Of a DNA stretch of 64,000 bases, positions 8,716 to 62,732 are shown in pieces. The stretch lies in IMG/VR virus record IMGVR_UViG_2974620381_000001, positions 48,928 to 112,927 of that record. One strand, given 5' to 3'. Position numbers and translations under genes: made by a program. Numbering within the stretch: the stretch's first letter is position 1; each line of letters begins with the position of its first letter. The notes beneath the pieces were generated by a model. That model was not told the origin of the DNA, did no database searches, and saw only the letters and a program-made list of their open reading frames with translations. This DNA is from a virus (lineage: Duplodnaviria; Heunggongvirae; Uroviricota; Caudoviricetes; Demerecviridae).

Positions 8716-8720
8716 AATTT

Positions 8721-31500: not shown

Positions 31501-31537
31501 CCAATTTTATTAACTGTAACTAAAACAAAGGAAATAT

Positions 31538-32485: not shown

Positions 32486-32507
32486 TATCCGTACGTAACA
32501 TCTGAAG

Positions 32508-32600: not shown

Positions 32601-32809
32601 GTTCCTTAGAACCATATACTCTTGTTACAGCAACCACCCATACGGGAGGCCAATCTTGACTGAAAATCTACTCTAGGGGGCAGGATAAGAGTAGGCTTAA
32701 AGGCAAACGGATTGAACGCCGGTATTTGCGTAAACATTGCTGGAGAGCAACAACGTGCTACAGGCATTGGGCAGCACGAAACAGATTTTCTGCAACACAT
32801 AATTTCTCC

Positions 32810-33238: not shown

Positions 33239-33259
33239 AATGGGCTCCTCCCCTTAATA

Positions 33260-34255: not shown

Positions 34256-34307
34256 CTCCTAGTATGTAGAAAATGTGTGTCTCTTTGATCACTCATCCAT
34301 AACATAT

Positions 34308-34336
34308 ACTTTATACTACTCCAGCGAAAATGTCAA
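34308..34336 (-). promoter_or_regulatory. sigma70-like promoter TTGACA-17-TAAAGT for the 331-aa low-complexity protein gene
   Basis: Hexamers on minus strand; differs from the T5 early-promoter style used elsewhere. Confidence 0.5.
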
Positions 34337-34452
34337 GGGGTCTTTAAAAATTGCCCCCGGATTTTTAGTGGGGTCACAAATTTTGGTCCTCACCACTTAT
34401 CTGCTACCCTTAAGCGCCCTATGATTTTCCTCTAAAAAGTTAAAAAATTTGA

Positions 34453-34481
34453 TTGCTTGAATGCTAAATTCTCTGTATAAT
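34453..34481 (+). promoter_or_regulatory. T5-type promoter
   Basis: TTGCTT-17-TATAAT. Confidence 0.6.
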
Positions 34482-34511
34482 ATATCTATAAATTTGAGAG
34501 AGGAACCAAAT

Positions 34512-35030
34512 ATGAATGTTGATGAGCTAACACAGCACCTCTTATCTATGGGATTTGATACTGATAAATATCATTGCTGGTTAAGTCCGGAAGGATGGCT
34601 AACAGTCCCGTTGTATGATTTCTCTGGGATGTTGAGGGGCTATCAAACTTATAATCCTTCTGCTCCAAAAGGTCATGGTAAGTGCCCCTTTGAAGCTAAA
34701 TACTTTACTTATTCTACCACCCAGTGTGTATGGGGACTAGAAACTCTCAATGGAGATGAAAAAGTAGTATTGATCGCTGAATCTGTATTTAAGGCAGTTG
34801 CGTTACATAACGCTGGGTATCCAGCCCTGGCAATGTTGGGTTCTTCTCCAGGAAAAGCGTTATTAAAGCAACTGAAATTACTACCTTTTAAATTGGTAGC
34901 TGTCGGAGATAATGATCCTGCGGGTGAAAAATTTGCTAGAAAATTAAACGGCTTTGTTTCTCCTGTAGATGTGGATGAGATGTCTACCGAAAACTTGAAA
35001 AATTTTCTTGCTATGAAGCTAAATTTCTAA
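34512..35030 (+). CDS. Toprim-domain protein (primase-like)
   Basis: 172 aa; VVLIAESVFKAVAL (E) ... LVAVGDNDPAGEKFARKL (DxD) Toprim motifs; start moved to ATG 34512 after GAGAGGAACC (track start is inside promoter). Confidence 0.5.
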   Translation: MNVDELTQHLLSMGFDTDKYHCWLSPEGWLTVPLYDFSGMLRGYQTYNPSAPKGHGKCPFEAKYFTYSTTQCVWGLETLNGDEKVVLIAESVFKAVALHNAGYPALAMLGSSPGKALLKQLKLLPFKLVAVGDNDPAGEKFARKLNGFVSPVDVDEMSTENLKNFLAMKLNF

Positions 35031-35036
35031 TATAAT
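35008..35036 (+). promoter_or_regulatory. T5-type promoter driving tRNA-Ser/tRNA-Met
   Basis: TTGCTA-17-TATAAT overlapping 3' end of the Toprim gene. Confidence 0.6.
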
Positions 35037-35051
35037 ATATCTTATAAATTC

Positions 35052-35137
35052 GGAAGAATAGCATAACGGTATTGCAGCAGATTGCTAATCTGTCGGTTTG
35101 AAATATAGCCTTGTGGGTTCGATTCCCACTTCTTCCG
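35052..35137 (+). tRNA. tRNA-Ser (anticodon GCT)
   Basis: Acceptor GGAAGAA/TTCTTCC, anticodon loop TTGCTAA, long variable arm, T-loop TTCGATT, CCA encoded. Confidence 0.7.
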
Positions 35138-35146
35138 CCAGATTTT

Positions 35147-35221
35147 GGTTCTCAAGCTCATATGGTATGAGCACCCGGCTCATAACCGGAAGGTACGTAG
35201 GTTCGAATCCTCGGGGAGCCA
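35147..35221 (+). tRNA. tRNA-Met (anticodon CAT; fMet, Met or Ile2 not distinguishable)
   Basis: Acceptor GGTTCTC/GGGAGCC (2 G-U), anticodon loop CTCATAA, T-loop TTCGAAT, CCA encoded. Confidence 0.6.
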
Positions 35222-35243
35222 CCAAATTAAATAAGGACAATTA

Positions 35244-35432
35244 ATGGAATTATTCATAGTTTCTGTTAAATTTGCACAAGATAGAGAACGTTCGGACGAG
35301 TTTAAACAAGGGTACAGACTAGTAAAGGCTACATCCGAACTCCATGCTATGGACAAAGTAGTAGACTATATGTATAATGTAGAAGATGTTTACTACGTCA
35401 ATGCTTTAGAAGCCTCAAAAGTAATTGACTAA
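35244..35432 (+). CDS. hypothetical protein
   Basis: 62-aa ORF after tRNA pair. Confidence 0.4.
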   Translation: MELFIVSVKFAQDRERSDEFKQGYRLVKATSELHAMDKVVDYMYNVEDVYYVNALEASKVID

Positions 35433-35441
35433 GGAGACTAT

Positions 35442-35627
35442 ATGTCCAAGTTTCAAGAACTCAAGCAAGAGCTAGAAGAGTGTGCCTGCCCTGAGTGTAG
35501 GGGAATTGGTGAAAGTTCTGATGCAGAAGCAGGAGATACTTTTTGCAATATCTGGGTTTGCCCAAATTGCAATGGTACAGGTATTAATCCTAACTGTGGT
35601 ATTTCTCTAGATATTGAAAGAGGATAA
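35442..35627 (+). CDS. small zinc-finger protein with DnaJ-type CxxCxGxG repeats
   Basis: 61 aa; CPECRGIG and CPNCNGTG motifs. Confidence 0.45.
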   Translation: MSKFQELKQELEECACPECRGIGESSDAEAGDTFCNIWVCPNCNGTGINPNCGISLDIERG

Positions 35628-35727
35628 TACCTGTGAAACTAAAAGATTATTATATTGGTTGGTTTGTGGGACTAGTAGTAGGATTTTCACTAGGCTATAA
35701 TATGTATCAACTAATAAACTGATTACA

Positions 35728-35801
35728 CGGGGGGTGTAATCGAATTGGCATAGGTACTGGACTTAAAATTCAGGTTTTGTGGGTTCGAATCCCACCACCC
35801 C
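35728..35801 (+). tRNA. tRNA with anticodon TAA (Leu-type anticodon) but short variable arm
   Basis: Acceptor GGGGGTG/CACCCCT, anticodon stem CTGGA/TTCAG with loop CTTAAAA, T-arm GTGGG-TTCGAAT-CCCAC, CCA encoded; D-arm poorly paired. Confidence 0.5.
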
Positions 35802-35821
35802 TACCAAATTAAGGAAATAAG

Positions 35822-35989
35822 ATGTATAGACATCCACCTCCGCCAACACGTCGTTCTAGGGAAGTCATCCTTATGGAATTGACTAAAAACTTCAAGGCAA
35901 CTCTTGAAGATAGAGATCTAGGCACGGATGAAGATATTGATTTTATTTGTAGACTATTAAAGATGAAACTGGAGAAACAACATGGCTAA
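35822..35989 (+). CDS. hypothetical small protein
   Basis: 55-aa ORF with AAGGA SD, overlaps next ORF start. Confidence 0.35.
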   Translation: MYRHPPPPTRRSREVILMELTKNFKATLEDRDLGTDEDIDFICRLLKMKLEKQHG

Positions 35990-36188
35990 TCCTGAAATTA
36001 CCGCACAACGTTTCATGCTTAAAGGCATGATTGCTGAGGCAGGTATAACTCAAGAGGTTGCAGATTTTCATAAGCAATTTCTTGACATTATAACTCTAGC
36101 TAAAGAGACTGGAGAAAAAGAACATGGAGCGGCAATTATGGCTATATCTCTTATTAGTCTAGACTTGGCTGAAGAATCTGGAGTTTAG
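35982..36188 (+). CDS. hypothetical protein
   Basis: 68-aa ORF. Confidence 0.4.
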   Translation: MANPEITAQRFMLKGMIAEAGITQEVADFHKQFLDIITLAKETGEKEHGAAIMAISLISLDLAEESGV

Positions 36189-36278
36189 CTCCTCCAAACA
36201 GAATTTTTAAAAATGTACTTGCCTTTTGCTTTAAATTTCTGATATAATAGTTATATAAATTGATGAAGGAGTTAACTA

Positions 36279-36554
36279 ATGCAAAATCGTGTTATAGCAG
36301 CTGGTATTGAAAGTGCAATCTGTAAATCCTGGGAAGGCTGGGAAGGTGAGATTGAATGGCTTTATTTCTATGATGTAGAACTTCTGCCGGAAGTTAAAGC
36401 TAAATGTGTTGAAGCTGGCATGGCTCCGGATGCAAAAGCTGATATTGATATTTCAATGTCTGAACTTAAAGGTCGTGTAGTTACCGTTAGTAATGAGGGG
36501 GAAGAAGTTTTCGAACTTCCATTCTCCTTAACTGTCACTCCTAAGTTCGACTAA
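36279..36554 (+). CDS. hypothetical protein
   Basis: 91-aa ORF after promoter ~36219-36249. Confidence 0.45.
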   Translation: MQNRVIAAGIESAICKSWEGWEGEIEWLYFYDVELLPEVKAKCVEAGMAPDAKADIDISMSELKGRVVTVSNEGEEVFELPFSLTVTPKFD

Positions 36555-36590
36555 CTAATACAGCACTGAGCAAGTTCTTTAAAATTTGAC

Positions 36591-36619
36591 TTGCTCAGTG
36601 CCTTAAAACTTGGTATAAT
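36591..36619 (+). promoter_or_regulatory. T5-type promoter driving tRNA-Tyr/Glu/Trp/Phe block
   Basis: TTGCTC-17-TATAAT. Confidence 0.55.
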
Positions 36620-36685
36620 AGTTATCTAATTTGGAAACATATTTAAAAGTGTTTAAATTAGAATATTTTGAATACTTCTAAATAT

Positions 36686-36770
36686 GGGGAAATATTCTGT
36701 AAGTGGTAGCAGAGCTGACTGTAAATCAGTTGTCATTGCGACTCGGGTGGTTCGACTCCATCTTTCCCCA
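36686..36770 (+). tRNA. tRNA-Tyr (anticodon GTA)
   Basis: Acceptor GGGGAAA/TTTCCCC, anticodon loop CTGTAAA, 15-nt variable arm, T-loop TTCGACT, CCA encoded. Confidence 0.7.
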
Positions 36771-36779
36771 CCAATTTAA

Positions 36780-36853
36780 GTCCTGTTAGACAAACTGGTA
36801 AAGTCACTACCCTTTCAAGGTAGGATTTGCGGGTTCGATCCCCGCACAGGACG
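36780..36853 (+). tRNA. tRNA-Glu (anticodon TTC)
   Basis: Acceptor GTCCTGT/ACAGGAC, anticodon stem-loop CTACC-CTTTCAA-GGTAG, T-loop TTCGATC, CCA encoded. Confidence 0.75.
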
Positions 36854-36864
36854 CCAATTCCTGC

Positions 36865-36938
36865 ATTCCTAGAGTGTTACTGGACAGCATGTCGGTCTCC
36901 AAAACCGTACGGTCTAGGTTCGAGTCCTAGTAGGTTTG
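36865..36938 (+). tRNA. tRNA-Trp (anticodon CCA), acceptor stem with two U-U mismatches
   Basis: D-stem GTGT/GCAT, anticodon loop CTCCAAA, T-arm CTAGG-TTCGAGT-CCTAG, CCA encoded; acceptor ATTCCTA/TAGGTTT pairs 5/7. Confidence 0.5.
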
Positions 36939-36948
36939 CCAAAAATTT

Positions 36949-37020
36949 GCACCTTTAGCTGAGATGGATTAGCGCTTGCCTGAAGAGCTTGAGAGGTTCG
37001 TTCGATACGAACAGGGTGCA
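36949..37020 (+). tRNA. tRNA-Phe (anticodon GAA)
   Basis: Acceptor GCACCTT/AGGGTGC, anticodon loop CTGAAGA (stem has two U-U mismatches), T-arm GTTCG-TTCGATA-CGAAC, CCA encoded. Confidence 0.55.
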
Positions 37021-37039
37021 CCAAATTGAAGGAGCTGCT

Positions 37040-37304
37040 GATGCATCCTGAAAACTTCTTTATTTACTGCGCGGATAAGTCGCTGAAACGTAGAATTAAC
37101 AAAGTCTATCATTATCGTGCTAGTCAACAGCCTTATGTATATGCTTTTGATGATGATCACATTCCACTAGAACAATTATCTTGTGATTACATGATATTGA
37201 AGAACTTTGACGAGACAAAGATCTCAAGCGTTCATAATCGACAGAATCCATTAACGTGGAAATATAAGAAGAAAAAGAAAGGCATCAAATTTTTAAAAAT
37301 GTAG
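37040..37304 (+). CDS. hypothetical protein
   Basis: 88 aa; start at ATG 37040 after AAGGAG. Confidence 0.45.
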
Positions 37305-37333
37305 TTGCTTAGTTTCCAAAAGTTCTGTATAAT
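37305..37333 (+). promoter_or_regulatory. T5-type promoter
   Basis: TTGCTT-17-TATAAT. Confidence 0.6.
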
Positions 37334-37362
37334 AATTACATAAATTGAACTGGAGAAGCAAC

Positions 37363-37587
37363 ATGACAGAACAAGAGTTGAATGAACGTAAGCTGGTAAT
37401 GCTTCGCTTACTAAATATTTTCTCTGGTATGGACGGTGGAATTGACTTTGTTCATCTACGTTCCTTCGTAGAAGAAGCTGAAGGCGAATCTATCACTAAA
37501 ATCCTTAAACACATGGGATTACTTTTAGATGCTGCTAATGTGGCTACTGAATATAAACTAGAAGATCTACCGGAGCGTGTTAAATGA
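37363..37587 (+). CDS. hypothetical protein
   Basis: 74 aa; start at ATG 37363 (MTEQEL) after CTGGAGAAG; promoter 37305-37333. Confidence 0.45.
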   Translation: MTEQELNERKLVMLRLLNIFSGMDGGIDFVHLRSFVEEAEGESITKILKHMGLLLDAANVATEYKLEDLPERVK

Positions 37588-37775
37588 AACGTTTAGTTAG
37601 ATTTAAGTGTTGTGGTTCTGAACATGTTTTCACACATCTTCGTGAATTTAAAATGTGTGATTGTGGTAAATCAGGCTATGACTTAGGAGATGGGTTCTAC
37701 ACCCGTACTCTAGGGAACTTCAATGATCTAGAATTTGAAGATCTCGAAAAACAAGATAAATCGACCGTTGGCTGA
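37584..37775 (+). CDS. Cys-rich small protein (putative zinc-binding)
   Basis: 63 aa; CCGSEH...CDCGKSG. Confidence 0.4.
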   Translation: MKRLVRFKCCGSEHVFTHLREFKMCDCGKSGYDLGDGFYTRTLGNFNDLEFEDLEKQDKSTVG

Positions 37776-37834
37776 ATGGCTTAGGCGAAGGATTGCAAAT
37801 CCTTTTTATGTGAGTTCAAATCTCATGCGGTCGT
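37762..37834 (+). tRNA. tRNA-Cys (anticodon GCA)
   Basis: Acceptor CGACCGT/GCGGTCG, anticodon stem-loop AAGGA-TTGCAAA-TCCTT, T-loop TTCAAAT, CCA encoded. Confidence 0.75.
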
Positions 37835-37840
37835 CCAATT

Positions 37841-37987
37841 TGCTGAAAGAATTGTTAAATCAATTCAGGCACGCGTAGGAACACTGTCTCCGTAATTGAA
37901 AGATGAGGCACGGTTTGGAGAGGTATGCCGCTACACGCTACGGTGCTAACTCCGTCTAGGTGAAAATCCTAGTCAGCAATATAAATT
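37841..37987 (+). ncRNA. structured tRNA-like/ncRNA element
   Basis: TTGCTGA (37841-47) complementary to TCAGCAA (37976-82) flanking a T-arm-like hairpin CTAGG-TGAAAAT-CCTAG (37959-75) with non-canonical loop. Confidence 0.25.
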
Positions 37988-37989
37988 TA

Positions 37990-38069
37990 GGGTCGTTAGC
38001 CAAGCGGTTTGGCGGTGGACTGTTAATCCATGTCGAAAGACAACGTAGGTTCGAATCCTACACGGCCCG
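37990..38069 (+). tRNA. tRNA-Asn (anticodon GTT) with extended variable arm
   Basis: Acceptor GGGTCGT/ACGGCCC, anticodon loop CTGTTAA, 13-nt variable arm, T-loop TTCGAAT, CCA encoded. Confidence 0.65.
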
Positions 38070-38174
38070 CCAAATTCTGTGTAGAGTTAAGTAAACCGGT
38101 AGCCAACCAGCTATCATTGCTGATATCGAATTCAGCCACAGATACCATTTTCATTAATAACTGAGGAAACAAGC

Positions 38175-38360
38175 ATGTCCAAGAATGTAATTGCGCAGCT
38201 AGAAGTTCATCGTGATAGCACTATCAACAATATTGAAGTTGAGAAGAAATACATCGAAGAACTTAAACATGATATACTAGTAAGTCTTAATCGTCTTAAT
38301 GTACGAAAAGAGTTTCTTAAGGAACTTAATGCAGCTATTGAAAAACTCAAAGCTGAGTAA
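38175..38360 (+). CDS. hypothetical coiled-coil protein
   Basis: 61-aa ORF. Confidence 0.4.
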   Translation: MSKNVIAQLEVHRDSTINNIEVEKKYIEELKHDILVSLNRLNVRKEFLKELNAAIEKLKAE

Positions 38361-38369
38361 ATGAATTAT

Positions 38370-38443
38370 GCGACCGGGGCTGGCTTGGTAATGGTACTCC
38401 CCTGTCACGGGAGAGAATGTGGGTTCGAATCCCATCGGTCGCG
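38370..38443 (+). tRNA. tRNA-Asp (anticodon GTC)
   Basis: Acceptor GCGACCG/CGGTCGC, anticodon stem-loop CTCCC-CTGTCAC-GGGAG, T-loop TTCGAAT, CCA encoded. Confidence 0.75.
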
Positions 38444-38629
38444 CCAAACAATTAGGGTACAGAGTAGGTAAAGGTAGGGGAGGTCACATATGGTCTTTAG
38501 ACGGATATGCTCTGGGGCTTCCGACTAGAAAGCTGCTTTACCGCGCCCTAGCCACAATAATTAAGCAAATCCCTCTTTTTCACAGGAGAGGGTATTTGAA
38601 GAAATTCTTACGAGAGATTCTTCAAATAT

Positions 38630-38702
38630 ACATCCATAGCTCAATGGTTAGAGCTACCGCCTCTTAAGCGGAGGGTTCTAGGTTCAAGTCCTAGTGGGTG
38701 TA
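38630..38702 (+). tRNA. tRNA-Lys (anticodon CTT)
   Basis: Acceptor ACATCCA/TGGGTGT, D-stem GCTC/GAGC, anticodon loop CTCTTAA, T-loop TTCAAGT, CCA encoded. Confidence 0.65.
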
Positions 38703-38731
38703 CCAAACTAAACTAGTACGAGAAATACGCT

Positions 38732-39079
38732 ATGATTAATGCTAAAGAAGAGTTGTTACTTGCCCTAAAGAATACTAAGTCTGAAGTTAAGTGTATTAAG
38801 ATAGAATTCGGTTATTATGGGGACAAAGAAGTCTGGGTATTACCAGTAGGTTATACAGAAAAAGATATTGAAGATTTTCTAAATAATCTAGACTTTAAAT
38901 ATGATTCTGGTTTCGGTGGACAATTGCTTTATGGTAACGTATGGTTTACTGATGGAACTTGGTTAGAACGTGGTGAATATGATGGTTCTGAATGGTGGGA
39001 ATATAAGACTACACCAGCAATCCCTGAGGAATGCCGAACAATTAATGGTGAAGTAGATAATACTTTACGGTTAAACTAA
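38732..39079 (+). CDS. hypothetical protein
   Basis: 115-aa ORF. Confidence 0.45.
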   Translation: MINAKEELLLALKNTKSEVKCIKIEFGYYGDKEVWVLPVGYTEKDIEDFLNNLDFKYDSGFGGQLLYGNVWFTDGTWLERGEYDGSEWWEYKTTPAIPEECRTINGEVDNTLRLN

Positions 39080-39201
39080 TAAAATTTCAGTGCAGAACAC
39101 GGAGCTAGCAATTCGGAAGTGCTGACTCATGATAAGCTGCCTATGTACTTGCGAAGCGGTCGTGTCCAAGACTCGGACTCTTGCACTGAAAACAATCAAA
39201 C

Positions 39202-39322
39202 ATTCTAGCGTGGTTGATGGGGAAACCAGCTTGGCGAGGGCAGAAGCTCGTTCGATTCGAGTGAAAGAATGGTTCTCGTAAGTCCGCACAAGTGATAACA
39301 GGTTCGAGTCCTGTCTAGAATG
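39202..39322 (+). ncRNA. tRNA-like element with ~48-nt insertion (121 nt between matching acceptor strands)
   Basis: 5' ATTCTAG (39202-08) is exact complement of 3' CTAGAAT (39315-21) flanking T-arm ACAGG-TTCGAGT-CCTGT (39298-39314); D-arm TGGT/ACCA present; contains a second T-arm-like hairpin GCTCG-TTCGATT-CGAGT at 39246-62. Confidence 0.3.
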
Positions 39323-39471
39323 ACACTATAAAGTTTACTTATTATGTAGGTTCCGGTAGACCGGCGGGTCTATTCTGGCATTTAAGAGAGGTCTCGCAAG
39401 CCTCTTTGTCAGCCGTGGGGTTCATAGCCTCCAGGTGGCCTACACAATAAGTAAATTTATTAAAAATTCAT

Positions 39472-39500
39472 TTGCTATTCTGCTTAATTCTCTGTATAAT
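39472..39500 (+). promoter_or_regulatory. T5-type promoter
   Basis: TTGCTA-17-TATAAT. Confidence 0.6.
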
Positions 39501-39532
39501 ATATCTTATAAAGTGAAGAGAAGGAAAGCTAA

Positions 39533-39730
39533 ATGAAGAAAGTTTTATTACTATCTGTATTCCTACTTACTGGTTGTTTTAAATTTGACTCAACCATTAA
39601 TAAAGAGTATGAATTTGCTAAAAATTTCTGTGGCGGGGAGAGTAATATAAAGAATTTCTACATATATAGTACAATTCCTAGTACCGTTTATTGTGTAGAC
39701 GGACGAATTATTAATATTCCTCCACAATAA
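39533..39730 (+). CDS. small lipoprotein
   Basis: 65 aa; signal peptide with lipobox LLTGC; promoter 39472-39500. Confidence 0.45.
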   Translation: MKKVLLLSVFLLTGCFKFDSTINKEYEFAKNFCGGESNIKNFYIYSTIPSTVYCVDGRIINIPPQ

Positions 39731-39739
39731 AAGAATTAA

Positions 39740-39812
39740 CAGTGCGTAGCGCAGTTGGTAGCGTGGGAGCTTTGGATGCTTCGGGTCGCAGGTTCGAGTC
39801 CTGCCGCACTGA
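39740..39812 (+). tRNA. tRNA-Pro (anticodon TGG)
   Basis: Acceptor CAGTGCG/CGCACTG, anticodon loop TTTGGAT, T-loop TTCGAGT, CCA encoded. Confidence 0.75.
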
Positions 39813-39821
39813 CCAAACAAT

Positions 39822-39896
39822 TGCGGGTTAGATCTCTGGTAGAGATCACTAGTCTCATAAGCTAGAAAGAGGTAGGTTCGATTCCTGCACCCGCTT
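39822..39896 (+). tRNA. tRNA with anticodon CAT (Met or Ile2)
   Basis: D-arm GATC-TCTGGTAGA-GATC, anticodon stem-loop CTAGT-CTCATAA-GCTAG, T-loop TTCGATT, CCA encoded; terminal acceptor pair mismatched. Confidence 0.6.
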
Positions 39897-39919
39897 CCAT
39901 TTTAATAGAGGATTTCGAA

Positions 39920-40087
39920 ATGAAAGTATTTCGATTAGTAGTAAGTGACAAACGTTTAGGTAAGAATACATCAAAATCCTTACTTGCTCATTACGGTAAA
40001 AATTGGGATGAAGTAATGGTAGAGTTTAGTACTAATCACCCCTACTTAAAAGTCCACTCTATTAAAGAAGTATACAATGGTTACTAA
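39920..40087 (+). CDS. hypothetical small protein
   Basis: 55-aa ORF with GAGGA SD. Confidence 0.35.
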   Translation: MKVFRLVVSDKRLGKNTSKSLLAHYGKNWDEVMVEFSTNHPYLKVHSIKEVYNGY

Positions 40088-40088
40088 T

Positions 40089-40164
40089 AGATCGCTAGCT
40101 CAATAGGTTTAGTAGCATCCGACTTTTAATCGGAAGGTTCTGGGTTCGAGTCCCAGGCGATCTA
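40089..40164 (+). tRNA. tRNA-Lys (anticodon TTT)
   Basis: Acceptor AGATCGC/GCGATCT, anticodon stem-loop TCCGA-CTTTTAA-TCGGA, T-loop TTCGAGT, CCA encoded. Confidence 0.7.
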
Positions 40165-40185
40165 CCAATTTCAAGAAAAATGCAG

Positions 40186-40215
40186 TTGCTTAATGCTTAA
40201 TTTCTTGTTATAATA
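40186..40215 (+). promoter_or_regulatory. T5-type promoter upstream of HNH-endonuclease leader
   Basis: TTGCTT-18-TATAAT. Confidence 0.55.
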
Positions 40216-40459
40216 TTTATATAAATTGATGAGAAGAGATCCTCATCATAGTTCACTAAGGTATTAGCTCGACCTAGGACTGGCTGCCAAAAAGCACGAT
40301 CCCTACGATTCGGGAGAAGTTCTAGATTAGTCCACTAGATTCAGCGGCAACTGAATAGTGTATCGGGTTTGCGAGATGACGCGGTTCCTTCCGCTTGAAG
40401 CGAAGGTGCTGTAGTTACGCCGAGCTAATAGCCTTAGTAAACTTACAGGGGTTAACGCA

Positions 40460-40846
40460 GTGTGTACAAAAACATGTAGAGCCTGTGGGAATGAATATCC
40501 GTTAACAACCGAATATTTTTATTCGAATGGATTTACTCCTAATGGCACAAAGAAGTGGAAGCCAACATGTAAAGCATGTGAAAAAGCTGAACGAGTAGCT
40601 GGACATGAAGAATTAATTAAAGAAGTATTTCCTGTATTAGAATGTAGTATTTGTGGATATAATAGGTGTAAACAAGCCCTAGATTTCCACCATACTAATC
40701 CAGAAGAAAAGGAATACTCCATTGCAAGGTTTAGAACTTCTCGTAGAAACAGAGAAGTAGTAATAGCAGAACTTAAAAAGTGCGTACTATTATGCTCTAA
40801 CTGCCATAGAGAAGTACATGCTGGATTAATAAATTTGGGCGAATAG
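40460..40846 (+). CDS. HNH endonuclease
   Basis: 128 aa, GTG start; Cys-rich N-terminus and HNH motif DFHHTNPEEK...NCHREVH. Confidence 0.65.
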   Translation: MCTKTCRACGNEYPLTTEYFYSNGFTPNGTKKWKPTCKACEKAERVAGHEELIKEVFPVLECSICGYNRCKQALDFHHTNPEEKEYSIARFRTSRRNREVVIAELKKCVLLCSNCHREVHAGLINLGE

Positions 40847-40908
40847 TGTCAGCGGGAGCACACCAGACTTGCAATCTGGTAGGGAGGGTTCGAGTCCCTC
40901 TTTGTCCA
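40837..40908 (+). tRNA. tRNA-Ala (anticodon TGC)
   Basis: Acceptor GGGCGAA/TTTGTCC (G-U pairs), anticodon stem-loop CCAGA-CTTGCAA-TCTGG, T-loop TTCGAGT, CCA encoded. Confidence 0.7.
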
Positions 40909-40916
40909 CCAAACAT

Positions 40917-40990
40917 GCGTGATTGATGGAATTGGCATACATACCGTCCTTAGAAGTCGGGTTTTGAGGGTTCGAATCCCTTGTCACGCA
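40917..40990 (+). tRNA. tRNA with anticodon TAG (Leu-type anticodon) but short variable arm
   Basis: Acceptor GCGTGAT/GTCACGC, anticodon loop CTTAGAA (stem 4/5), T-loop TTCGAAT, CCA encoded. Confidence 0.5.
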
Positions 40991-40995
40991 CCAAA

Positions 40996-41069
40996 TTTGA
41001 TGGTCAGAGTAAATTAAACCTACTATCTCGGTTGAGCTGTTTTAATGGGTTCGAATCCCAGCGAGGCGT
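40996..41069 (+). tRNA. tRNA-like element, not foldable (possible pseudogene)
   Basis: Canonical T-arm TGGG-TTCGAAT-CCCA at 41046-41060 but no matching acceptor strand or anticodon arm; no CCA. Confidence 0.3.
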
Positions 41070-41105
41070 AACTGCCTGGCGTGATAGAGGCATCATCTTA
41101 TTATT

Positions 41106-41193
41106 GGAAGAGCAAATCGAATTGGCGACGAAAACCGCTTGGAAAGTGGCTGACTGGTAAAACGGCTTGAGAGTTCAAATCTCTCCTCTTCCG
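41106..41193 (+). tRNA. tRNA-Ser (anticodon GGA)
   Basis: Acceptor GGAAGAG/CTCTTCC, 3-bp D-stem, anticodon loop TTGGAAA, long variable arm, T-loop TTCAAAT, CCA encoded. Confidence 0.6.
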
Positions 41194-41203
41194 CCAAACA
41201 AAT

Positions 41204-41290
41204 GGAAGGTAGGGCGTAGTGGTACGCAACTAGTCTTGAAAACTAGCCCGCTGTAGTGATACGGTGATGGTTCGACTCCATTACCTTCCT
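41204..41290 (+). tRNA. tRNA-Ser (anticodon TGA)
   Basis: Acceptor GGAAGGT/ACCTTCC, D-stem GCG/CGC, anticodon stem-loop CTAGT-CTTGAAA-ACTAG, 19-nt variable arm, T-loop TTCGACT, CCA encoded. Confidence 0.7.
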
Positions 41291-41312
41291 CCAATTAACT
41301 ATAAGGAATCAT

Positions 41313-41486
41313 TATGAGCAAAACAGTTACTGTAACAATGAAGGACGGTAAAAAATTTAAAGCATGCCTTCATGAAACAGATAAGGGATGGATGGCTTAT
41401 TTGCCACACCTAGATTCCACTGGGTATGGAATGACCCAACGTGAAGCTATTGTTGATGCTTTAAATGAGGCTTCTGCTGGTTTATA
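41313..41486 (+). CDS. hypothetical small protein
   Basis: 57-aa ORF, AAGGAA SD. Confidence 0.35.
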
Positions 41487-41855
41487 AAAATTCTTGAAGT
41501 ATGCCGGAATCGGTAGACGGGGCTGCCTAAAAGGTTTATAGGGAACATCCACTCCCTGCAATATACCTCATAAAGCGGCTGAGATAAATGGTCTATCTCG
41601 TGAAGGTTCAAGTCCTTCTGCTTCTTGATATATCTATGGCTCAAAGTGTAACGGTGCTATTTGATGCTCTTAGTAAGACTTTCCCGACATGCGTTCGGGA
41701 GTAAGCTGCTAAGACTAGAGTAGAAGAGTTTCTGAGAGCCGCCACAATTGAAAATTCGTACTCGTCTTGAGCTGCGTGCAACAGGAGATAACTTGATTAG
41801 TATTCTAGAACATGCTAATTGAGGATGGTTTCGCTAACCCTGCGAGTTTTCAATT

Positions 41856-41929
41856 GTGGCTATATCATAATTGGTTAATGATCCTGATTGTGAATCAGGC
41901 CTATGTGGATTCGAATTCCACTAGCCACC
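41856..41929 (+). tRNA. tRNA-His (anticodon GTG)
   Basis: Acceptor GTGGCTA/TAGCCAC, D-stem TCAT/ATGA, anticodon stem-loop CCTGA-TTGTGAA-TCAGG, T-loop TTCGAAT, CCA encoded. Confidence 0.75.
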
Positions 41930-41957
41930 CCAGATTAACTTAAATAGGAAATAAAAT

Positions 41958-42155
41958 ATGGCTGAGTTCTGCAAACAATGCTCCATTGATATGTGGGGCA
42001 GAGATACTGGTGACTTATCTGGTTTGATTACAGAAGCTGAGGTCAAAGAAGGTTATGGTGCAGTTGTGGTTTGCGAAGGATGCGGAGTTATTCGAGTAGA
42101 TCATGAAGGCAAACGTTTAGAAGAACCGGAAAACTTAGGAGAAACAAATGAGTAA
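41958..42155 (+). CDS. hypothetical Cys-containing protein
   Basis: 65 aa; CKQC...CEGCG. Confidence 0.4.
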   Translation: MAEFCKQCSIDMWGRDTGDLSGLITEAEVKEGYGAVVVCEGCGVIRVDHEGKRLEEPENLGETNE

Positions 42156-42384
42156 TGCTTTAATTAGTGAAATTATGTTAACACGTCTTGCAGAACTGCA
42201 AACTCTTCGAGATGAATCTCAGAATAACTTATCCTACCATAAACAGATGGTAGATACTCTTACTACTCGTATTGAAACTTACGAGCGTGATATTGCAGCA
42301 TTACAAGCTCTTTTCTCTGTATCAGCACCAGATACACTAGAACAGCCTGTCGTATCTCAGCCGGTAGAAACAGCATCTAGTTAA
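42148..42384 (+). CDS. hypothetical coiled-coil protein
   Basis: 78-aa ORF overlapping previous stop. Confidence 0.4.
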   Translation: MSNALISEIMLTRLAELQTLRDESQNNLSYHKQMVDTLTTRIETYERDIAALQALFSVSAPDTLEQPVVSQPVETASS

Positions 42385-42393
42385 TAGCATTCT

Positions 42394-42466
42394 TGGGGTG
42401 TAGATCAATTGGCAGATCGTCGGCCTCTGACTCCGAAGGTTCCTGGTTCGATCCCAGGCACTCCAG
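42394..42466 (+). tRNA. tRNA-Gln (anticodon CTG)
   Basis: Acceptor TGGGGTG/CACTCCA, D-stem GATC/GATC, anticodon loop CTCTGAC, T-loop TTCGATC, CCA encoded. Confidence 0.6.
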
Positions 42467-42475
42467 CCAAACAAT

Positions 42476-42548
42476 TGGAGAGTAGTGTAACGGTTAGCAC
42501 AACGGCCTTTGACTCCGTTAATGGTAGGTTCGATTCCTCCTTCTCCAG
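42476..42548 (+). tRNA. tRNA-Gln (anticodon TTG)
   Basis: Acceptor TGGAGAG/TTCTCCA, D-stem GTGT/GCAC, anticodon loop CTTTGAC, T-loop TTCGATT, CCA encoded. Confidence 0.6.
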
Positions 42549-42558
42549 CCAAATAATA

Positions 42559-42632
42559 AGCGGTTAAGCACACGGGTTGTGTCGCAGGCCTTCCAAGCCT
42601 CGCTGAGTAGGGTTCGATTCCCTCTAGCCGCT
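42559..42632 (+). tRNA. tRNA-Gly (anticodon TCC)
   Basis: Acceptor GCGGTTA/TAGCCGC, anticodon loop CTTCCAA, T-loop TTCGATT, CCA encoded. Confidence 0.6.
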
Positions 42633-42651
42633 CCAACTTTAAGGAAACATT

Positions 42652-42903
42652 ATGCACGTTTTTGAGTTTCGTAATAAAAGTACCGATAAACGAGTTATTG
42701 TTATTGGAGAAACATACCGAGCATACGAACAAACTGACGGCTCTGTTATCCTGAATGATGAGAAAGGAGGTTTTAGCTTTTATCCAGAAGAACCTTATGA
42801 AGAGTTTCGAAAACAATTTAACCTAGACTGGAGAAAGCATTTAAACACTGTTGCTTCATCTGTAGTATTGCCAACTACCAGTACTGTACTCTCTAATGGC
42901 TGA
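42652..42903 (+). CDS. hypothetical protein
   Basis: 83-aa ORF. Confidence 0.4.
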   Translation: MHVFEFRNKSTDKRVIVIGETYRAYEQTDGSVILNDEKGGFSFYPEEPYEEFRKQFNLDWRKHLNTVASSVVLPTTSTVLSNG

Positions 42904-43060
42904 CAACCTAAAAGTCAAGATTGATAAACAAAAGAAACGTGTAGAAGTAGAGATTGGTGAAGAACGTGTAGCCTTCACCTTTGAATTTCTTCAGCAGTTG
43001 GCAATGGCAGTTATGACTGATAAGTCTCCTGTTATTGAAAAAGAAATCCCGTTAAAATAA
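42896..43060 (+). CDS. hypothetical small protein
   Basis: 54-aa ORF; ATG overlaps previous stop (ATGGCTGA). Confidence 0.35.
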   Translation: MADNLKVKIDKQKKRVEVEIGEERVAFTFEFLQQLAMAVMTDKSPVIEKEIPLK

Positions 43061-43070
43061 CGGGATCATC

Positions 43071-43141
43071 GCTCCTAAAGCATTGCTGGCGATGCAGTTG
43101 CCTTGTAAGCATCTGAACCGGGTTCGATTCCTGGTGGGAGC
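43071..43141 (+). tRNA. tRNA-Thr (anticodon TGT)
   Basis: Acceptor GCTCCTA/TGGGAGC, D-stem GCAT/ATGC, anticodon loop CTTGTAA, T-loop TTCGATT, CCA encoded. Confidence 0.7.
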
Positions 43142-43160
43142 ACCAAATTTAAAAATTCAT

Positions 43161-43189
43161 TTGCCTTCTCTCTTATTTCTTGTTATAAT
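43161..43189 (+). promoter_or_regulatory. T5-type promoter
   Basis: TTGCCT-17-TATAAT. Confidence 0.55.
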
Positions 43190-43219
43190 ATCTAATTAAA
43201 TTAATGAGAGGGAAACCAA

Positions 43220-43510
43220 ATGAAACGTTATCTTTCTATTGTATTCCAAACTGGTGGCCAAAGATATACCTATGAATTTCCATCTTCTTGGAAAATCAAA
43301 GAAGGTGATCAAGTAGTTGTGCTAACTCCGCGTGAGGGATATAAAGTAGTAACGGTTAAACAAGTATTTCCAAAAGATCATGAGCCTGCTAGAGGCATCC
43401 GATATAAGATGATTCATGGTGTGGTTCGTCAAGTACCACGAACTGAGGTAGAAGTAGGTAAGAATGGAGAAACTAAATTCCATTATACTTCTTACCTAGA
43501 TAGTGTGTGA
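43220..43510 (+). CDS. hypothetical protein
   Basis: 96 aa; promoter 43161-43189. Confidence 0.45.
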   Translation: MKRYLSIVFQTGGQRYTYEFPSSWKIKEGDQVVVLTPREGYKVVTVKQVFPKDHEPARGIRYKMIHGVVRQVPRTEVEVGKNGETKFHYTSYLDSV

Positions 43511-43525
43511 TGTAAATATTTTAAT

Positions 43526-43599
43526 GCTTCGGTAGCTTAGCGATCTAAAGCACTCGGCTGATAACCGAGAGATCGGGGGTTTAAATCCCTCCCGGAGTA
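43526..43599 (+). tRNA. tRNA-Ile (anticodon GAT)
   Basis: Acceptor GCTTCGG/CCGGAGT, D-stem GCTT/AAGC, anticodon stem-loop CTCGG-CTGATAA-CCGAG, T-loop TTTAAAT, CCA encoded. Confidence 0.7.
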
Positions 43600-43698
43600 C
43601 CAAATTTAGGAATTAAGACTATGCGTCCAGGAAAGTTTAAAAAAGCTAATTGGTCTAAAGAGTATAAAGAATACTTACTTAGTCTAGTAAAATATAGC

Positions 43699-43770
43699 AG
43701 TTAGTTGGCAGAGTGGTTATGCACCTCCTTCATACGGAGCGACTACAGTGGTTCAAATCCACTACTAACT
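43699..43770 (+). tRNA. tRNA with anticodon CAT (Met or Ile2), third CAT copy
   Basis: Acceptor AGTTAGT/ACTAACT, anticodon loop TTCATAC, T-loop TTCAAAT, CCA encoded. Confidence 0.6.
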
Positions 43771-43797
43771 ACCAAATTCTAACATCGGGGAGATCTA

Positions 43798-59936: not shown

Positions 59937-60646
59937 TTAAAGAAGCCGAAAAATTAAAACGTCTCATTCAGTTAGCGCGTGGTGCTACACAAAAGAGCCT
60001 TTCTCAGCTAACTGATGAAGAAAAATATGCAGTAATGTTTTTAGGAGATCATTATCCTGCTAAGTGGGATAAAGGTAAGATCAAATATGATCGTGATGCA
60101 AAACGAGTAGTTTGGTCAGGCTCATATGTGGAGGTGAATAAAGCGTTGAAAGCTTTAGATCCTGAAGCAAAGGGTTTCTCTTCTAATGCTATTCATATTC
60201 TAATCGATGAAGATCTCCCAAGATTTAAGGAAGCATCATTTAAAGAAGCATTAGCTAGCGAAGATCTTATCCCTTTCAAACATGGCAAATATGCCCACCT
60301 TCCTCCACTAGAAAAAGAGAAACCAACTCTAGTTAAAGATGAAGTTTATCGTGGGATTGGCACGATGTTAGCGAGTTTGACTGTAGCTCTCCATAAAGAT
60401 CTAGAGTTAACGCCCTTAGAAAATGCTGTGCATTTCATGTGTCATAAATACGAAGATACATTTAAAGAGCTATGTAAGTCGCTAGGAATGCCAAGTTACA
60501 CGATATTAAACTACGCTCCTGAGTATACTAGAGCAGCTCGCGGAACTATGGATTACGATGATACAGGATCCACTGCTTCCTATTTAGCAACTTATATCTA
60601 CTTCGCATCCTTAGGTATCAAACTCAAATCCAAGAAGGAGGAATAA
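59933..60646 (+). CDS. hypothetical protein
   Basis: 237-aa ORF; last gene before the 1.7-kb repeat region. Confidence 0.5.
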   Translation: MIKEAEKLKRLIQLARGATQKSLSQLTDEEKYAVMFLGDHYPAKWDKGKIKYDRDAKRVVWSGSYVEVNKALKALDPEAKGFSSNAIHILIDEDLPRFKEASFKEALASEDLIPFKHGKYAHLPPLEKEKPTLVKDEVYRGIGTMLASLTVALHKDLELTPLENAVHFMCHKYEDTFKELCKSLGMPSYTILNYAPEYTRAARGTMDYDDTGSTASYLATYIYFASLGIKLKSKKEE

Positions 60647-60696
60647 AAGTTAACAAAAAGTTCTTGCATTCTCATACCCAAACATGTTATAATAAT

Positions 60697-60866
60697 CTCA
60701 TAGATTAACAACTACTCTAGTTGATTAACTCTAGGGGCGATGATTATTACACGAATGTCTCGTATAGCTTGCGGCCTAGCAACAGCGGTATGACGGCATG
60801 AGTACTCACGTAATTAATCACGCGCCCCCAGGAGAGACTCTCATGAAATTGGGGGTCTCTTTTTCT
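60697..60866 (+). ncRNA. candidate small RNA (promoter-to-terminator unit, ~170 nt, no ORF)
   Basis: Promoter TTGCAT-18-TATAAT (60664-60693); downstream GC hairpin (CCCCCAGGAGAGAC...GGGGGTCTCT) plus TTTTTCTTTAT at 60815-60866. Confidence 0.4.
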
Positions 60867-61020
60867 TTATATTATTTAAATATTTTTAATGGCAATATCT
60901 GTGTTCAAGATGATACACCTGTTGCCGTTCATCTGCTAGGATGGCACAACACTTTCTTCTAGACTCCTAAGTTTCTAGGAATAGTTGAGCACAAATTCTA
61001 GAGATCACACTAAAATATTC

Positions 61021-61757
61021 ATCGGATTTGCACATATTCTAGGGCAGTTTTCTTCTCATATTATATTCTTTAGGCCGGTTTTCCTATATAGGGCGGTTTT
61101 AGGGAGGGCGGTTATTTCTAGAAGACATTTTTCGAAAACACATTTCCAGAAATTACTGTCGGATTTGCACACTGATATTCTAGAAATTTATGGTCGGATT
61201 TGCACAAACGCCTAAGTTTTTAGGAACTCTTACTCTCCTGAAAATAGCAGCATTATTTCGGGCCGAAGGCCCATGATTGCCTGAGTTTTTAGAGCCACAG
61301 AAATTTTCACTTGTCAAGCTATTTTGCCCCATTTTGCTAATAAAATTTTACTTTATCTGCACCTATCCCAAATCTTCCCAAATTATCTCAACTCTTCCCC
61401 AAAATCCCCGCAAATCAGGTGCTCCGCACCAAACATGCGCCCCATCCTTCTAGCCCCCAAATTTCTCTCGCTCTCTCATCTTCTCCTCAAACCCACACAA
61501 TCACACACCCTCCAATCGAAGTCACAAAAATCTTGTCGGATTCGCACAAATAAACTCATGTCGGATCTGCTCATACTCTAGCTAATTCCACAGGATTGAT
61601 GCGCAGCATCGGATTGCTGGAGTTTTTAGGAAAATTCATTGTCGGATTTGCACACTATAAAAATTTTTCGGGTCGGATTTGCACACTACCAAAAATTGTC
61701 GGATTCGCACATACATGCCCGCACGTAACACCCGTGGAGCAATGTCGGATTTGCACA
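61021..61757. repeat. nine dispersed 14-bp iterons GTCGGATTTGCACA (two with 1-2 mismatches)
   Basis: Copies at 61021, 61158, 61193, 61535, 61560 (degenerate), 61641, 61672, 61698, 61744; all same orientation. Confidence 0.8.
61360..61530 (+). other. G-poor polypyrimidine (C/T/A) tract of ~170 nt
   Basis: Plus strand contains almost no G between 61360 and 61530 (ccc/ctc/tcc runs). Confidence 0.7.
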
Positions 61758-61789
61758 AAAGCGCAGGGCAATTGCCCTGCGCTAAATAC

Positions 61790-61990
61790 GAATGATAATA
61801 AGAATCATTCTCATTTAAAAAGCGGAATGAGAATGATAATAATTCGCATTTAGAAAGTGAAATGAGAATCAATCTCATTTAAGAAAGGGAATGAGAACTA
61901 TTCAAAAAGTGAAATGATTATCGGTTAGATAGTGGAATGTGAATGATAATAATTCGCATCTAAGAATGGAAGTGAGAAACACTGTTATTT
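61790..61990. repeat. array of GRAATGAGAA(T) repeats with internal palindromes
   Basis: At least six copies (cGGAATGAGAATg, tGAAATGAGAATc, gGGAATGAGAACt, tGAAATGATTATc, tGGAATGTGAATg, GGAAGTGAGAAAc); perfect palindrome AAATGAGAAT-c-ATTCTCATTT at 62298-62318. Confidence 0.7.
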
Positions 61991-61993
61991 AAG

Positions 61994-62086
61994 TTATCCA
62001 CAGACTTATCAACAGCACGATTTGATTTGACAGAATCCTAGCCATTTTGAAGCGTTATTAACAGACTTATCCACAGCTTATCCTAC
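61994..62086 (+). promoter_or_regulatory. DnaA-box cluster (2 perfect TTATCCACA + 3 one-mismatch variants) embedded in 18-bp direct repeat ACAGACTTATC[CA]ACAGC
   Basis: TTATCCACA at 61994-62002 and 62067-62075; TTATCAACA 62007-62015; TTATTAACA ~62055; TTATCCTAC 62078-62086. Confidence 0.65.
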
Positions 62087-62359
62087 TGTATAAATATACA
62101 GTATTCCTATGCAGTGAATAATTCTAATATACCGCTAAAACGTCCTGAATCGCATTCTAACGCGTTTAATTTTGGTGGGGATACTAAAACAAGGGCAAAA
62201 TTGGAGGAGGCTTAAAAATTAGTTAGCCCGCTAACGATCACACAAGGCGACACGTAACACCCTAATCATTAGCAGGCTAACCATCGCGAGCGCGGTCAAA
62301 TGAGAATCATTCTCATTTGAGAATTGGGGGCACTCCCTGGTAGTTGCGCCCCGTGATTA

Positions 62360-62554
62360 TTAGTCTGGTAGTCGATGCGTGATTTTTTCCTCCTCCCCGT
62401 AGGAATCCACCAAATGCTGATAATAACCATCGTGATCATAAATCACTTTATCATACTCGCCACGCTCGACCGCTTGCCGGTTTTCCGGCGTATCGGGCAC
62501 ATAAAAAACGTCAACCATTGTGGTAGTTTTGGTTACAACAATTTTATTGCTCAT
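62360..62554 (-). CDS. hypothetical protein
   Basis: 64-aa ORF, first gene after the repeat region, opposite orientation to early genes. Confidence 0.4.
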   Translation of the reverse strand: MSNKIVVTKTTTMVDVFYVPDTPENRQAVERGEYDKVIYDHDGYYQHLVDSYGEEEKITHRLPD

Positions 62555-62570
62555 AATAACCCCCGTTATT

Positions 62571-62732
62571 AATTATTTGCGTAAATATACGCTTGCCAAT
62601 AGTCCAGCTAGAAAGCCCGCCGGTACACCAAATGAAGCCACACCGGGAACACTAGCACCATGAGCATATAAAGCCCAGCAAATTACATAAGGCAACAACG
62701 GAAACATGCCAGCTATTAAAAACTTTTTCATT
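62571..62732 (-). CDS. small membrane peptide
   Basis: 53-aa hydrophobic ORF with GGTGG SD. Confidence 0.3.

Follow-up and report, generated by a model that had tools for sequence, protein, structure and literature searches.

A G-poor, C-rich tract beside the terminal-repeat boundary of T5-like phages: composition, helical phasing and possible roles

Why should one strand of a phage chromosome be so poor in G over some 170 nt, right beside the end of the DNA? This question is raised by a non-coding tract in a stretch of 64,000 nt (hereafter the window) from the Demerecviridae record IMGVR_UViG_2974620381_000001, where window position 1 is record position 48928 and the window plus strand is the record plus strand. 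The tract is a true, statistically extreme compositional feature that the initial annotation of this DNA described inaccurately. That annotation also missed its adjacency to the repeat boundary and chromosome end, its membership of the annotated injection stop signal (iss) or Repeat Region 3, and the conservation of its composition and phasing.

Composition of the tract and its place at the chromosome end

The tract and the elements around it are as follows.

61338–61530, plus strand: G-poor, C-rich, non-coding tract with 6% G and 38–42% C, in two sub-zones
61418–61440, no strand assigned: central G-containing island splitting the sub-zones, made up of the palindrome GGTGC-TCC-GCACC (61418–61430) and GCGC (61437–61440)
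61367–61405, plus strand: C-run plus A-tract motifs CCCAAATCTTCCCAAAT and CTCAACTCTTCCCCAAAAT, annotated in T5 AY587007 as 'direct repeat A copies 3' and 2'' and seen by Tandem Repeats Finder (TRF) as a weak tandem repeat of 10 nt
61292, no strand assigned: inner boundary of the 10,822-bp direct terminal repeat, which extends rightward in the window
61246–61345, plus strand: most conserved block of the non-coding region, straddling the repeat boundary, with the core TTTTCACTTGTCAAGCTATTTTGCCCC
61013–61208, plus strand: left cluster of three DRD repeats GTCGGATTTGCACA, outside the terminal repeat
61527–61759, plus strand: right cluster of six DRD repeats GTCGGATTTGCACA, inside the terminal repeat; T5 'direct repeat D copies 6-1'
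61760–61783, no strand assigned: perfect 24-bp palindrome AGCGCAGGGCAATTGCCCTGCGCT, homologue of the T5 major single-strand interruption (7.9% / 99.6–99.7%)

Between 61360 and 61530 (171 nt) the plus strand holds A50, C72, G11, and T38, which puts G at 6.4% compared with a window mean of 19.9%. The strand asymmetry that had first drawn attention to the tract is therefore real, and a recount does not return a normal G content. The lowest GC skew of all 64,000 positions belongs to the 171-nt window at 61347 (−0.76, G10/C72, z ~ −4.8; the runner-up reaches −0.59), and the C count of the tract is the maximum for windows of this length in the 64 kb. The binomial probability of 11 or fewer G is 7e-7, or ~0.04 once multiplied by 64,000 positions, and that of 72 or more C is 6e-12. 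These composition and skew statistics show that the G depletion is real and lies well past chance.

The proposed extent of about 170 nt captures a real zone, which is slightly larger than described and bipartite, with sub-zones at 61319–61418 and 61438–61534 that contain at most 2 G per 30-nt window throughout. The terms 'G-free' and 'polypyrimidine' have to be dropped, given the 11 G and an A content of 29%. The tract is 64% pyrimidine, its longest pure pyrimidine run is 10 nt compared with 17 nt elsewhere in the window, and its longest G-free runs, of 50 nt (61360–61409) and 47 nt (61471–61517), rank 3rd and 6th in the window. H-DNA, which the initial annotation had suggested, was rejected: the tract lacks a homopyrimidine or homopurine run of at least ~15 bp, and the best mirror-repeat candidate, TCTCTCGCTCTCT (13 nt, 61464–61476), is broken by a G. 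The palindrome of the central island is the sole stable hairpin of the tract; its stem is kept in Epseptimavirus (loop TAAA) and in the relative L046 (loop CTC), and the GCGC of the island is the tetranucleotide of the T5 nick site on the nicked strand. One other 171-nt window, at 12357, is equally G-poor. It was rejected as a similar element, being an AT-rich 65-codon minus-strand open reading frame (ORF) in which C is not enriched.

The claim that no frame here could encode a protein was correct in that the tract is non-coding, but an 85-codon ORF (61324–61581, plus strand) does span it. Where G is lost, two of the three stop codons (TAG and TGA) go with it. In 6 of 11 relatives the length of this ORF region is not divisible by three, and 2 relatives show a stop at codon 14. 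Since the frame is broken among relatives, we conclude that the tract is non-coding and reject a protein-coding gene. A 44-aa minus-strand ORF annotated in the phage HdH2 measures 25 aa here.

A segment of 1.7 kb around the tract is 100% identical to NBSal005 (Demerecviridae, Tequintavirus; record 109577–111277). Over its full length it is 87–92% identical to T5-type phages, many T5-like Salmonella and Escherichia phages match it at 85–93% identity, and the mean column identity in a four-way alignment of the region with T5-type phages is 93%. Records that follow the conventional T5 map match the window on their minus strand, at ~8.5–10.8 kb, so the window runs opposite to the T5 map, and the tract corresponds to about T5 9,980–10,173. 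Judged by this sequence homology, the tract region is the homologue of the untranslated T5 region called 'Repeat Region 3' or iss (Heusterspreute et al., 1987; Wang et al., 2005; both as cited in Davison, 2020, bioRxiv 10.1101/866236). In the T5 reference annotation, iss occupies 9140–10149 (~window 62369–61362) and covers most of the tract. As in T5, the window region lies at the inner end of a long terminal repeat and between convergent pre-early and early genes. The order DRD repeats, GCGC nick palindrome, DRE-type repeats, and DnaA boxes is the same in both, and we found no structural difference between T5 Repeat Region 3 and the window region.

The accessible T5 literature covers the repeats and palindromes, whereas the strand asymmetry, the ~10-bp phasing, and a role of the tract are not described there; a text search for 'C-rich', 'G-rich', and 'purine' found none of them in Davison (2020, bioRxiv 10.1101/866236). 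According to papers of 2023 and 2026, functional work on the T5 repeat field is still lacking. The tract region is already on the T5 map; the conserved strand bias, the 10-bp phasing, and the exact relation to the end and the nick are new here.

The position of the boundary follows from several records. In NBSal005, positions 1–10822 equal 110219–121040 with 0 mismatches, and record position 110219 is window 61292. This base aligns to T5 10219, where NC_005859 has its left terminal repeat annotated as ending, and its homologue is the last base of two T5 genomes determined independently of each other, NC_005859 and AY587007 (...AAATTTCTGTGGCTC and ...CTGTGGATC). We therefore take the boundary to be where the virion DNA physically ends on the right. 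Inside the repeat, 46 nt separate the boundary from the start of the tract, and the annotated boundaries of MM-1 and My1 occupy the same relative position as 61292. At the other repeat boundary, coding sequence runs up to ~110 bp before the cut and from ~40 bp after it, and a comparable repeat field is absent.

Two side observations concern the repeat ends. The terminal repeat begins with GAGCCACAGAAA (61292–61303) and ends with GGGCCACTGGAC (L004 10811–10822); the two are identical at 8 of 12 positions and have a GCCAC core in common, which may represent a shared end motif or chance (rough estimate p ~0.05). Just outside the repeat, at 61043–61117, stand four GGGCGGTT-like copies (agggcagtttt, aggccggtttt, agggcggtttt, agggcggttat), and the related GGGCGGTAATGAGA is found ~35–50 nt inside the other repeat end (L004 10780–10800).

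The major nick, A/GCGC at ~61760/61761, is on the window plus strand, which is the minus strand of the T5 map, and lies ~230 nt beyond the tract. Its palindrome comes directly after the sixth right-hand DRD copy, and the tract is the C-rich strand of a 469-nt terminal fragment (61292–61760) of the nicked strand. Annotated repeat ends of relatives fall at the equivalents of 61292 (T5 NC_005859, MM-1, My1), 61310–61334 (Kenya-K15, Kenya-K38, the record start of atrejo, the contig end of S.Hadar), and ~61495 (pork27, saus176N), as well as on or slightly past the nick (9749 in T5 st0; precisely AA/GCGC in the PhageTerm result for Sugarland; ~35 nt past GCGCAGG in Rocket24). The coordinates of the nick-coincident ends in relatives are L013 1857, L087 10544, and L007 2749–2750. 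The PhageTerm repeat value of 9,743 bp for BF23 (PMC10644984), unchecked against sequence, probably belongs with them. Classical T5 maps place a nick at 99.5–99.7%, and both T5 records run 470 bp past it. The nick-coincident ends are for this reason most simply explained as artefacts of a nick that mimics a terminus, which means that repeat lengths read from pile-ups in T5-like phages often stop at the conserved nick and are probably ~470 bp too short.

Conservation of composition and helical phasing

All T5 relatives examined keep the C-rich, G-poor tract. In a comparison of 11 phages, G makes up 6.2–8.8% of the tract in each, while 97 of its 193 columns vary. Column identity among 16 Markadamsvirinae is 97–99% in the block at 61246–61345, 72–91% in the middle of the tract (61346–61485), and 93–96% at its right end (61486–61545). 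A substitution-spectrum test for G avoidance was underpowered and not significant (share of minor alleles to G: tract and left flank, 0.15 each; right flank, 0.26).

The core TTTTCACTTGTCAAGCTATTTTGCCCC remains recognisable in Sugarland, My1, and Proteus, Aeromonas, and Vibrio relatives. In Klebsiella phages (Sugarlandvirus) the BLAST match is restricted to window 61286–61384; in Sugarland itself the block is followed by ~120 nt in which C-runs stand at an exact spacing of 10 nt, and the 200 nt after the motif contain 12% G and 40% C. The Pectobacterium phage My1, of another subfamily, carries the block TTTTTCATTTGTCAATCCTTTTGCCCCC directly after its annotated boundary, then ~270 nt with 7% G and 34% C. 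In the Vibrio phage Rocket24, whose A1 protein is 32% identical, GTCAA...GCCCAAATCCCCAAAATC lies between two groups of iterons and contains 9 G and 32 C per 100 nt. The common order, seen in Sugarland, My1, Vibrio Rocket24, Proteus phage 2, and Aeromonas AhSzq-1, is block, C-rich/G-poor tract, iterons, GCGCAGG, AATGAGAAT-type repeats, and DnaA boxes. Counting the five further genera in which the tract does not align (Klebsiella, Pectobacterium, Proteus, Aeromonas, and Vibrio phages, each with a C-rich/G-poor tract in the same slot), six genus-level lineages share the position and the strand of the bias. What is conserved is composition and ~10-bp phasing rather than sequence. A scan of IMG/VR with the 15-mer TTTTTAGAGCCACAG returned 71 loci, 15 of them T5-like (all isolate genomes) and the remainder chance matches.

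Additional and much longer G-poor arrays of short direct repeats occur in more distant relatives, on this strand too but elsewhere in the repeat field, for example with the units ATTCCCCACCATTCTATT in Proteus phage 2 (L092 4760–5260) and CTTCTAGCCATCTAGA in Rocket24 (L087 10544–10640) and AhSzq-1 (L093, reverse complement, 3540–3760).

These comparisons bear on the idea that the tract has no function of its own and that its skew arose passively, through mutational bias or when a short asymmetric motif was duplicated in tandem. A degenerate 10-nt tandem repeat does make up part of the tract, and the G-avoidance test was not significant. However, the same place and strand are kept in lineages whose tracts do not align and whose A1 proteins are 32–42% identical, and a deamination bias would raise A or T, not C. 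We consider this explanation improbable.

The internal pattern of the tract is made of units in which a C-run is followed by an A-tract (CCCAAAT, CCCCAAAAT, CCCCCAAATTT), all on one strand. Copies 2' and 3' of 'direct repeat A' in AY587007 are CTCAACTCTTCCCCAAAAT and CTCAAATCTTCCCAAAT, inside the tract. Motifs of the form C3+A3+ occur 4 times in 239 nt compared with 0.07 expected, at spacings of 10, 20, 40, and 57 nt, and TRF reports a weak tandem repeat of period 10 at 61366–61399. In each of the six lineages tested (the window, T5, an Epseptimavirus, Sugarland, My1, and Rocket24), Fourier analysis put the peak period of C as well as of A/T at 9.75–10.0 (shuffle p 0.002–0.044). In a periodicity scan of the 64 kb, the 193-nt window starting at 61296–61304, directly at the chromosome end, ranks first for C as well as for A/T.

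We tentatively favour the reading that the tract is directional, helically phased architectural DNA of a complex at the repeat boundary, most plausibly one that makes the right end and starts its packaging, although our confidence in it stays clearly below an even chance. That the conserved block and the phased array are a cis signal for right-end formation or the start of packaging (a T5 'pac'), or the DNA where two-step transfer restarts, we regard as possible but doubtful. Lying on the short end piece of the nicked strand, such a signal could span the first ~240 bp inside the boundary. As in regions of the terminase type, the tract is adjacent to the mature chromosome end. It directly follows the best-conserved block and is flanked by three DRD repeats outside and six inside the terminal repeat, and its CCCCAAAT-like C-run plus A-tract motifs stand on one strand at spacings in multiples of ~10 bp.

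In mechanistic terms, the phased alternation of C/G and A/T blocks would make ~200 bp beside the cut anisotropically bendable, or the tract would offer a head-to-tail array of short sites on one face of the helix. The DRD repeats would bind a phage protein, and by analogy with terminase sites the tract might let the proteins on the two DRD clusters meet around the cut site. As T5 DNA is injected left end first, packaging presumably starts from the right end, in which case the tract would make up the first ~240 bp to enter the head.

Several points weigh against this packaging reading. A wedge model predicts only moderately raised static curvature for the tract (the 150-bp end-to-end ratio lies at the 13th percentile), and the 15 highest curvature peaks of the window are all outside it; with static curvature only moderate, the signal is better called helical phasing or anisotropic flexibility than a strong fixed bend. 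Bending of a duplex alone needs no C-runs on one strand, so the strand bias requires the extra assumption of a directional array. The T5 packaging direction is one that we infer, the annotated repeat ends of relatives scatter over window equivalents from 61292 to ~61761, and the right-end array of T7 has no comparable skew. The accessible literature gives the tract no role, and we found nothing specific on the T5 terminase, a pac site, or transcript maps of the region. Strong predicted DNA curvature does occur elsewhere in the window, at 11477–11640 and 12310. An apparently non-coding, G+C-rich and maybe structured segment at 11780–12140 overlaps the 5' end of a 995-codon minus-strand ORF and extends ~200 nt beyond it.

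Neighbouring elements and alternative roles

As the initial annotation stated, the tract sits between clusters of iterons. The nine DRD copies all have the same orientation; the distance across boundary and tract is 342 nt start-to-start, and the other spacings are 25–137 nt. To the right of the nick palindrome follow AATGAGAAT/ATTCTCATT repeats and then two pairs of DnaA boxes, which are described as the core of the proposed injection stop signal (Davison, 2020, bioRxiv 10.1101/866236):

61994–62075, plus strand: paired DnaA boxes TTATCCACA (61994–62002), TTATCAACA (62006–62014), TTATTAACA (62055–62063), and TTATCCACA (62067–62075)

The most C-poor stretch of the window adjoins the tract region. 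It lies at 61783–61995 (13 C per 171 nt at 61783; GC skew +0.49 at 61824) and consists of AATGAGAAT/ATTCTCATT-type repeats and nested inverted repeats.

With nine direct repeats and four DnaA boxes within ~1 kb, the tract could be the spacer of an iteron/DnaA-box replication origin. The irregular spacing of the repeats (25–137 nt, and 342 across the tract) speaks against this, and so does the composition of the tract, which at 48% G+C is no AT-rich unwinding element. Moreover, according to Davison (2020, bioRxiv 10.1101/866236), electron microscopy places the T5 origins near the genome centre. An origin function is thus very improbable in our view.

The overlap with iss raises a different possibility, namely that the tract takes part in two-step DNA transfer, as iss in the wide sense or as a restart signal. 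Tract DNA would then sit in the tail or portal at the ~8% pause, or would be the site at which A1/A2 act for resumption. The T5 iss annotation, reaching 10149 (window 61362) and thus over most of the tract, is consistent with this, as is the conservation of the region in all examined phages that carry A1/A2, and the model of Davison postulates an A1/A2 target just right of iss. Against this, shearing is estimated to occur at T5 9618, which puts the tract ~370–600 bp past that point and also past the 7.9% nick. As candidates for iss proper, the DnaA-box inverted repeat and the DRE repeats (T5 9332–9600) are favoured over the tract, and they are at least 370 bp away from it. FhuA-triggered ejection in vitro is not known to stop permanently at 8%, which argues against a brake inside the virion. 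Taken together, a transfer role appears unlikely, although we would not set it aside lightly.

The strand composition of the tract is also what a loading site for the host termination factor Rho (Rho utilisation, rut) would be expected to have. If polymerase from the early operon on the plus strand read through the upstream intrinsic terminator, the untranslated RNA of the tract would recruit Rho, halting antisense transcription into the pre-early genes of the repeat. The C/G ratio of ~6.5–7 over more than 170 nt is the maximum of the window, and well over the 80 nt of C-rich, G-poor, unstructured RNA typical of such sites are present (C 42%, G 6%). Apart from the central hairpin, the plus strand as RNA is nearly unstructured, with a minimum free energy (MFE) of −20 kcal/mol for 241 nt. 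Composition, not sequence, is conserved, C-runs recur every ~10 nt, and the genes upstream of the tract run towards it on its own strand in each lineage examined.

Transcription of the region is convergent, with genes on the plus strand to the left and on the minus strand to the right. Upstream of the tract we found a terminator:

60830–60872, plus strand: strong intrinsic terminator with a 14-bp stem and a T-run, ~470 nt upstream of the tract, also annotated in HdH2

On the other side, the palindrome at 61760–61783 is followed on the minus strand by TTTT and is annotated as a terminator in HdH2. A scan for promoter-like sites on the plus strand between 60872 and the tract found none. The interval from 60872 to ~61760 therefore looks insulated from both sides, which weakens a Rho-loading role, since little RNA should arrive. 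Rho loading would also leave unexplained the CCCCAAAT motif, the central palindrome, and the tight link with the repeat boundary and iterons. All in all, we judge it to be quite unlikely.

The terminator at 60830–60872 also ends a candidate small RNA gene (60664–60872, plus strand), in which an extended −10 promoter (TTGCAT, 18 nt, TGtTATAAT) is followed by ~175 nt. The predicted fold has an MFE of −63.2 kcal/mol (z −6.9) and no Rfam match. The candidate is present at full length only in HdH2 and Kenya-K38, its promoter part occurs in more relatives, and nothing was found at the T5 locus. An Rfam search of 60400–62600 as a whole gave no credible match (best E-values 0.18 and 0.97).

The nick suggests yet another role, in which displacement of the 469-nt fragment leaves a G-rich 3' overhang on the intact strand. 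Such an overhang might fold into a G-quadruplex, resist RecBCD, or invade the other repeat to form a circle or concatemer. A landing site for single-strand-binding proteins, as suggested in the initial annotation, would be conceivable given the placement of the tract on this fragment. The geometry is evident from the nick A/GCGC at ~61760 on the plus strand and the end at 61292, and several repeat ends obtained by sequencing coincide exactly with the nick, as would be seen if the terminal piece had been lost. The tract also holds the G4Hunter extremes of the 64 kb. For the complementary strand, its 193-nt mean is the most negative found (−0.84, ~7 standard deviations), and it contains the sole 25-nt window with |G4Hunter| of at least 1.5; the 31-nt segment 61434–61464 scores −1.58, with too few runs for a canonical fold. 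A canonical G-quadruplex or i-motif was rejected, as four G3+ runs with loops of up to 7 or up to 12 nt were not found in the window or in T5. The canonical four-run motif is present only in Sugarland (loops ≤7) and My1 (loops ≤12), and the C-runs vary among close relatives and are not kept one-for-one. A 469-bp duplex, moreover, would not melt spontaneously, and nickless T5 mutants are viable. We therefore give a single-strand or non-B function only a very slight chance.

How T5 injection stops and restarts and how the 10-kb terminal repeat is generated are questions that have been open since the 1960s, and they are not solved here. The repeat field can now be split by evolutionary behaviour into a near-invariant end block, a strand-specific tract conserved in composition and phase, iterons, and the nick palindrome. 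The order of these elements is kept from coliphages to Vibrio phages, and they are small, concrete targets for T5 genome editing. If the proposal of a cis signal for packaging or for the restart of transfer is true, the 'iss' repeat field contains a family-wide directional DNA signal that is distinct from the DnaA-box elements. As expected for the tRNA region of a T5-type phage, 25 tRNA genes, all on the plus strand, are found elsewhere in the window, at 30855–43771.

Comparison with known systems

Well-known Rho utilisation sites are rutA and rutB of the lambda terminator tR1. Like rut sites, the tract is C-rich, G-poor, unstructured, untranslated, and at least 80 nt long. Unlike them, it lies behind a strong terminator with no promoter found upstream, contains a short conserved motif and a palindrome, and is located at a genome end rather than at the end of an operon.

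Among terminase sites, a bend between repeats is found in lambda cosB (R3-I1-R2-R1 by cosN), P1 pac (4+3 hexamer repeats on the two sides of the cut), and SPP1 pacL/pacC/pacR. By analogy, the T5-family arrangement resembles these three systems in that the tract lies by the chromosome end, two clusters of direct repeats surround the cut, and phased DNA lies between them. It differs in its central region, which is much longer (342 nt start-to-start), and a consensus for integration host factor (IHF) is not obvious in the tract by eye. To our knowledge, none of these three systems shows such an extreme C bias of one strand.

An analogy with T7 was considered and rejected, as the array next to its left repeat is G-poor but its right-end array, in the region with the T7 packaging signal, is not skewed. 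The T7 arrays have no sequence similarity to the tract. The left array, of CCTAAAG repeats (T7 161–345), belongs to the first-injected end and stands just outside a 160-bp repeat; the T5-family tract belongs to the last-injected end and stands just inside a repeat of 10 kb. Like the tract, this left array is subterminal, non-coding, G-poor and C+A-rich, with 10.8% G and 30.8% C, and in both cases short direct repeats stand on the strand that has its 5' end at the nearby terminus.

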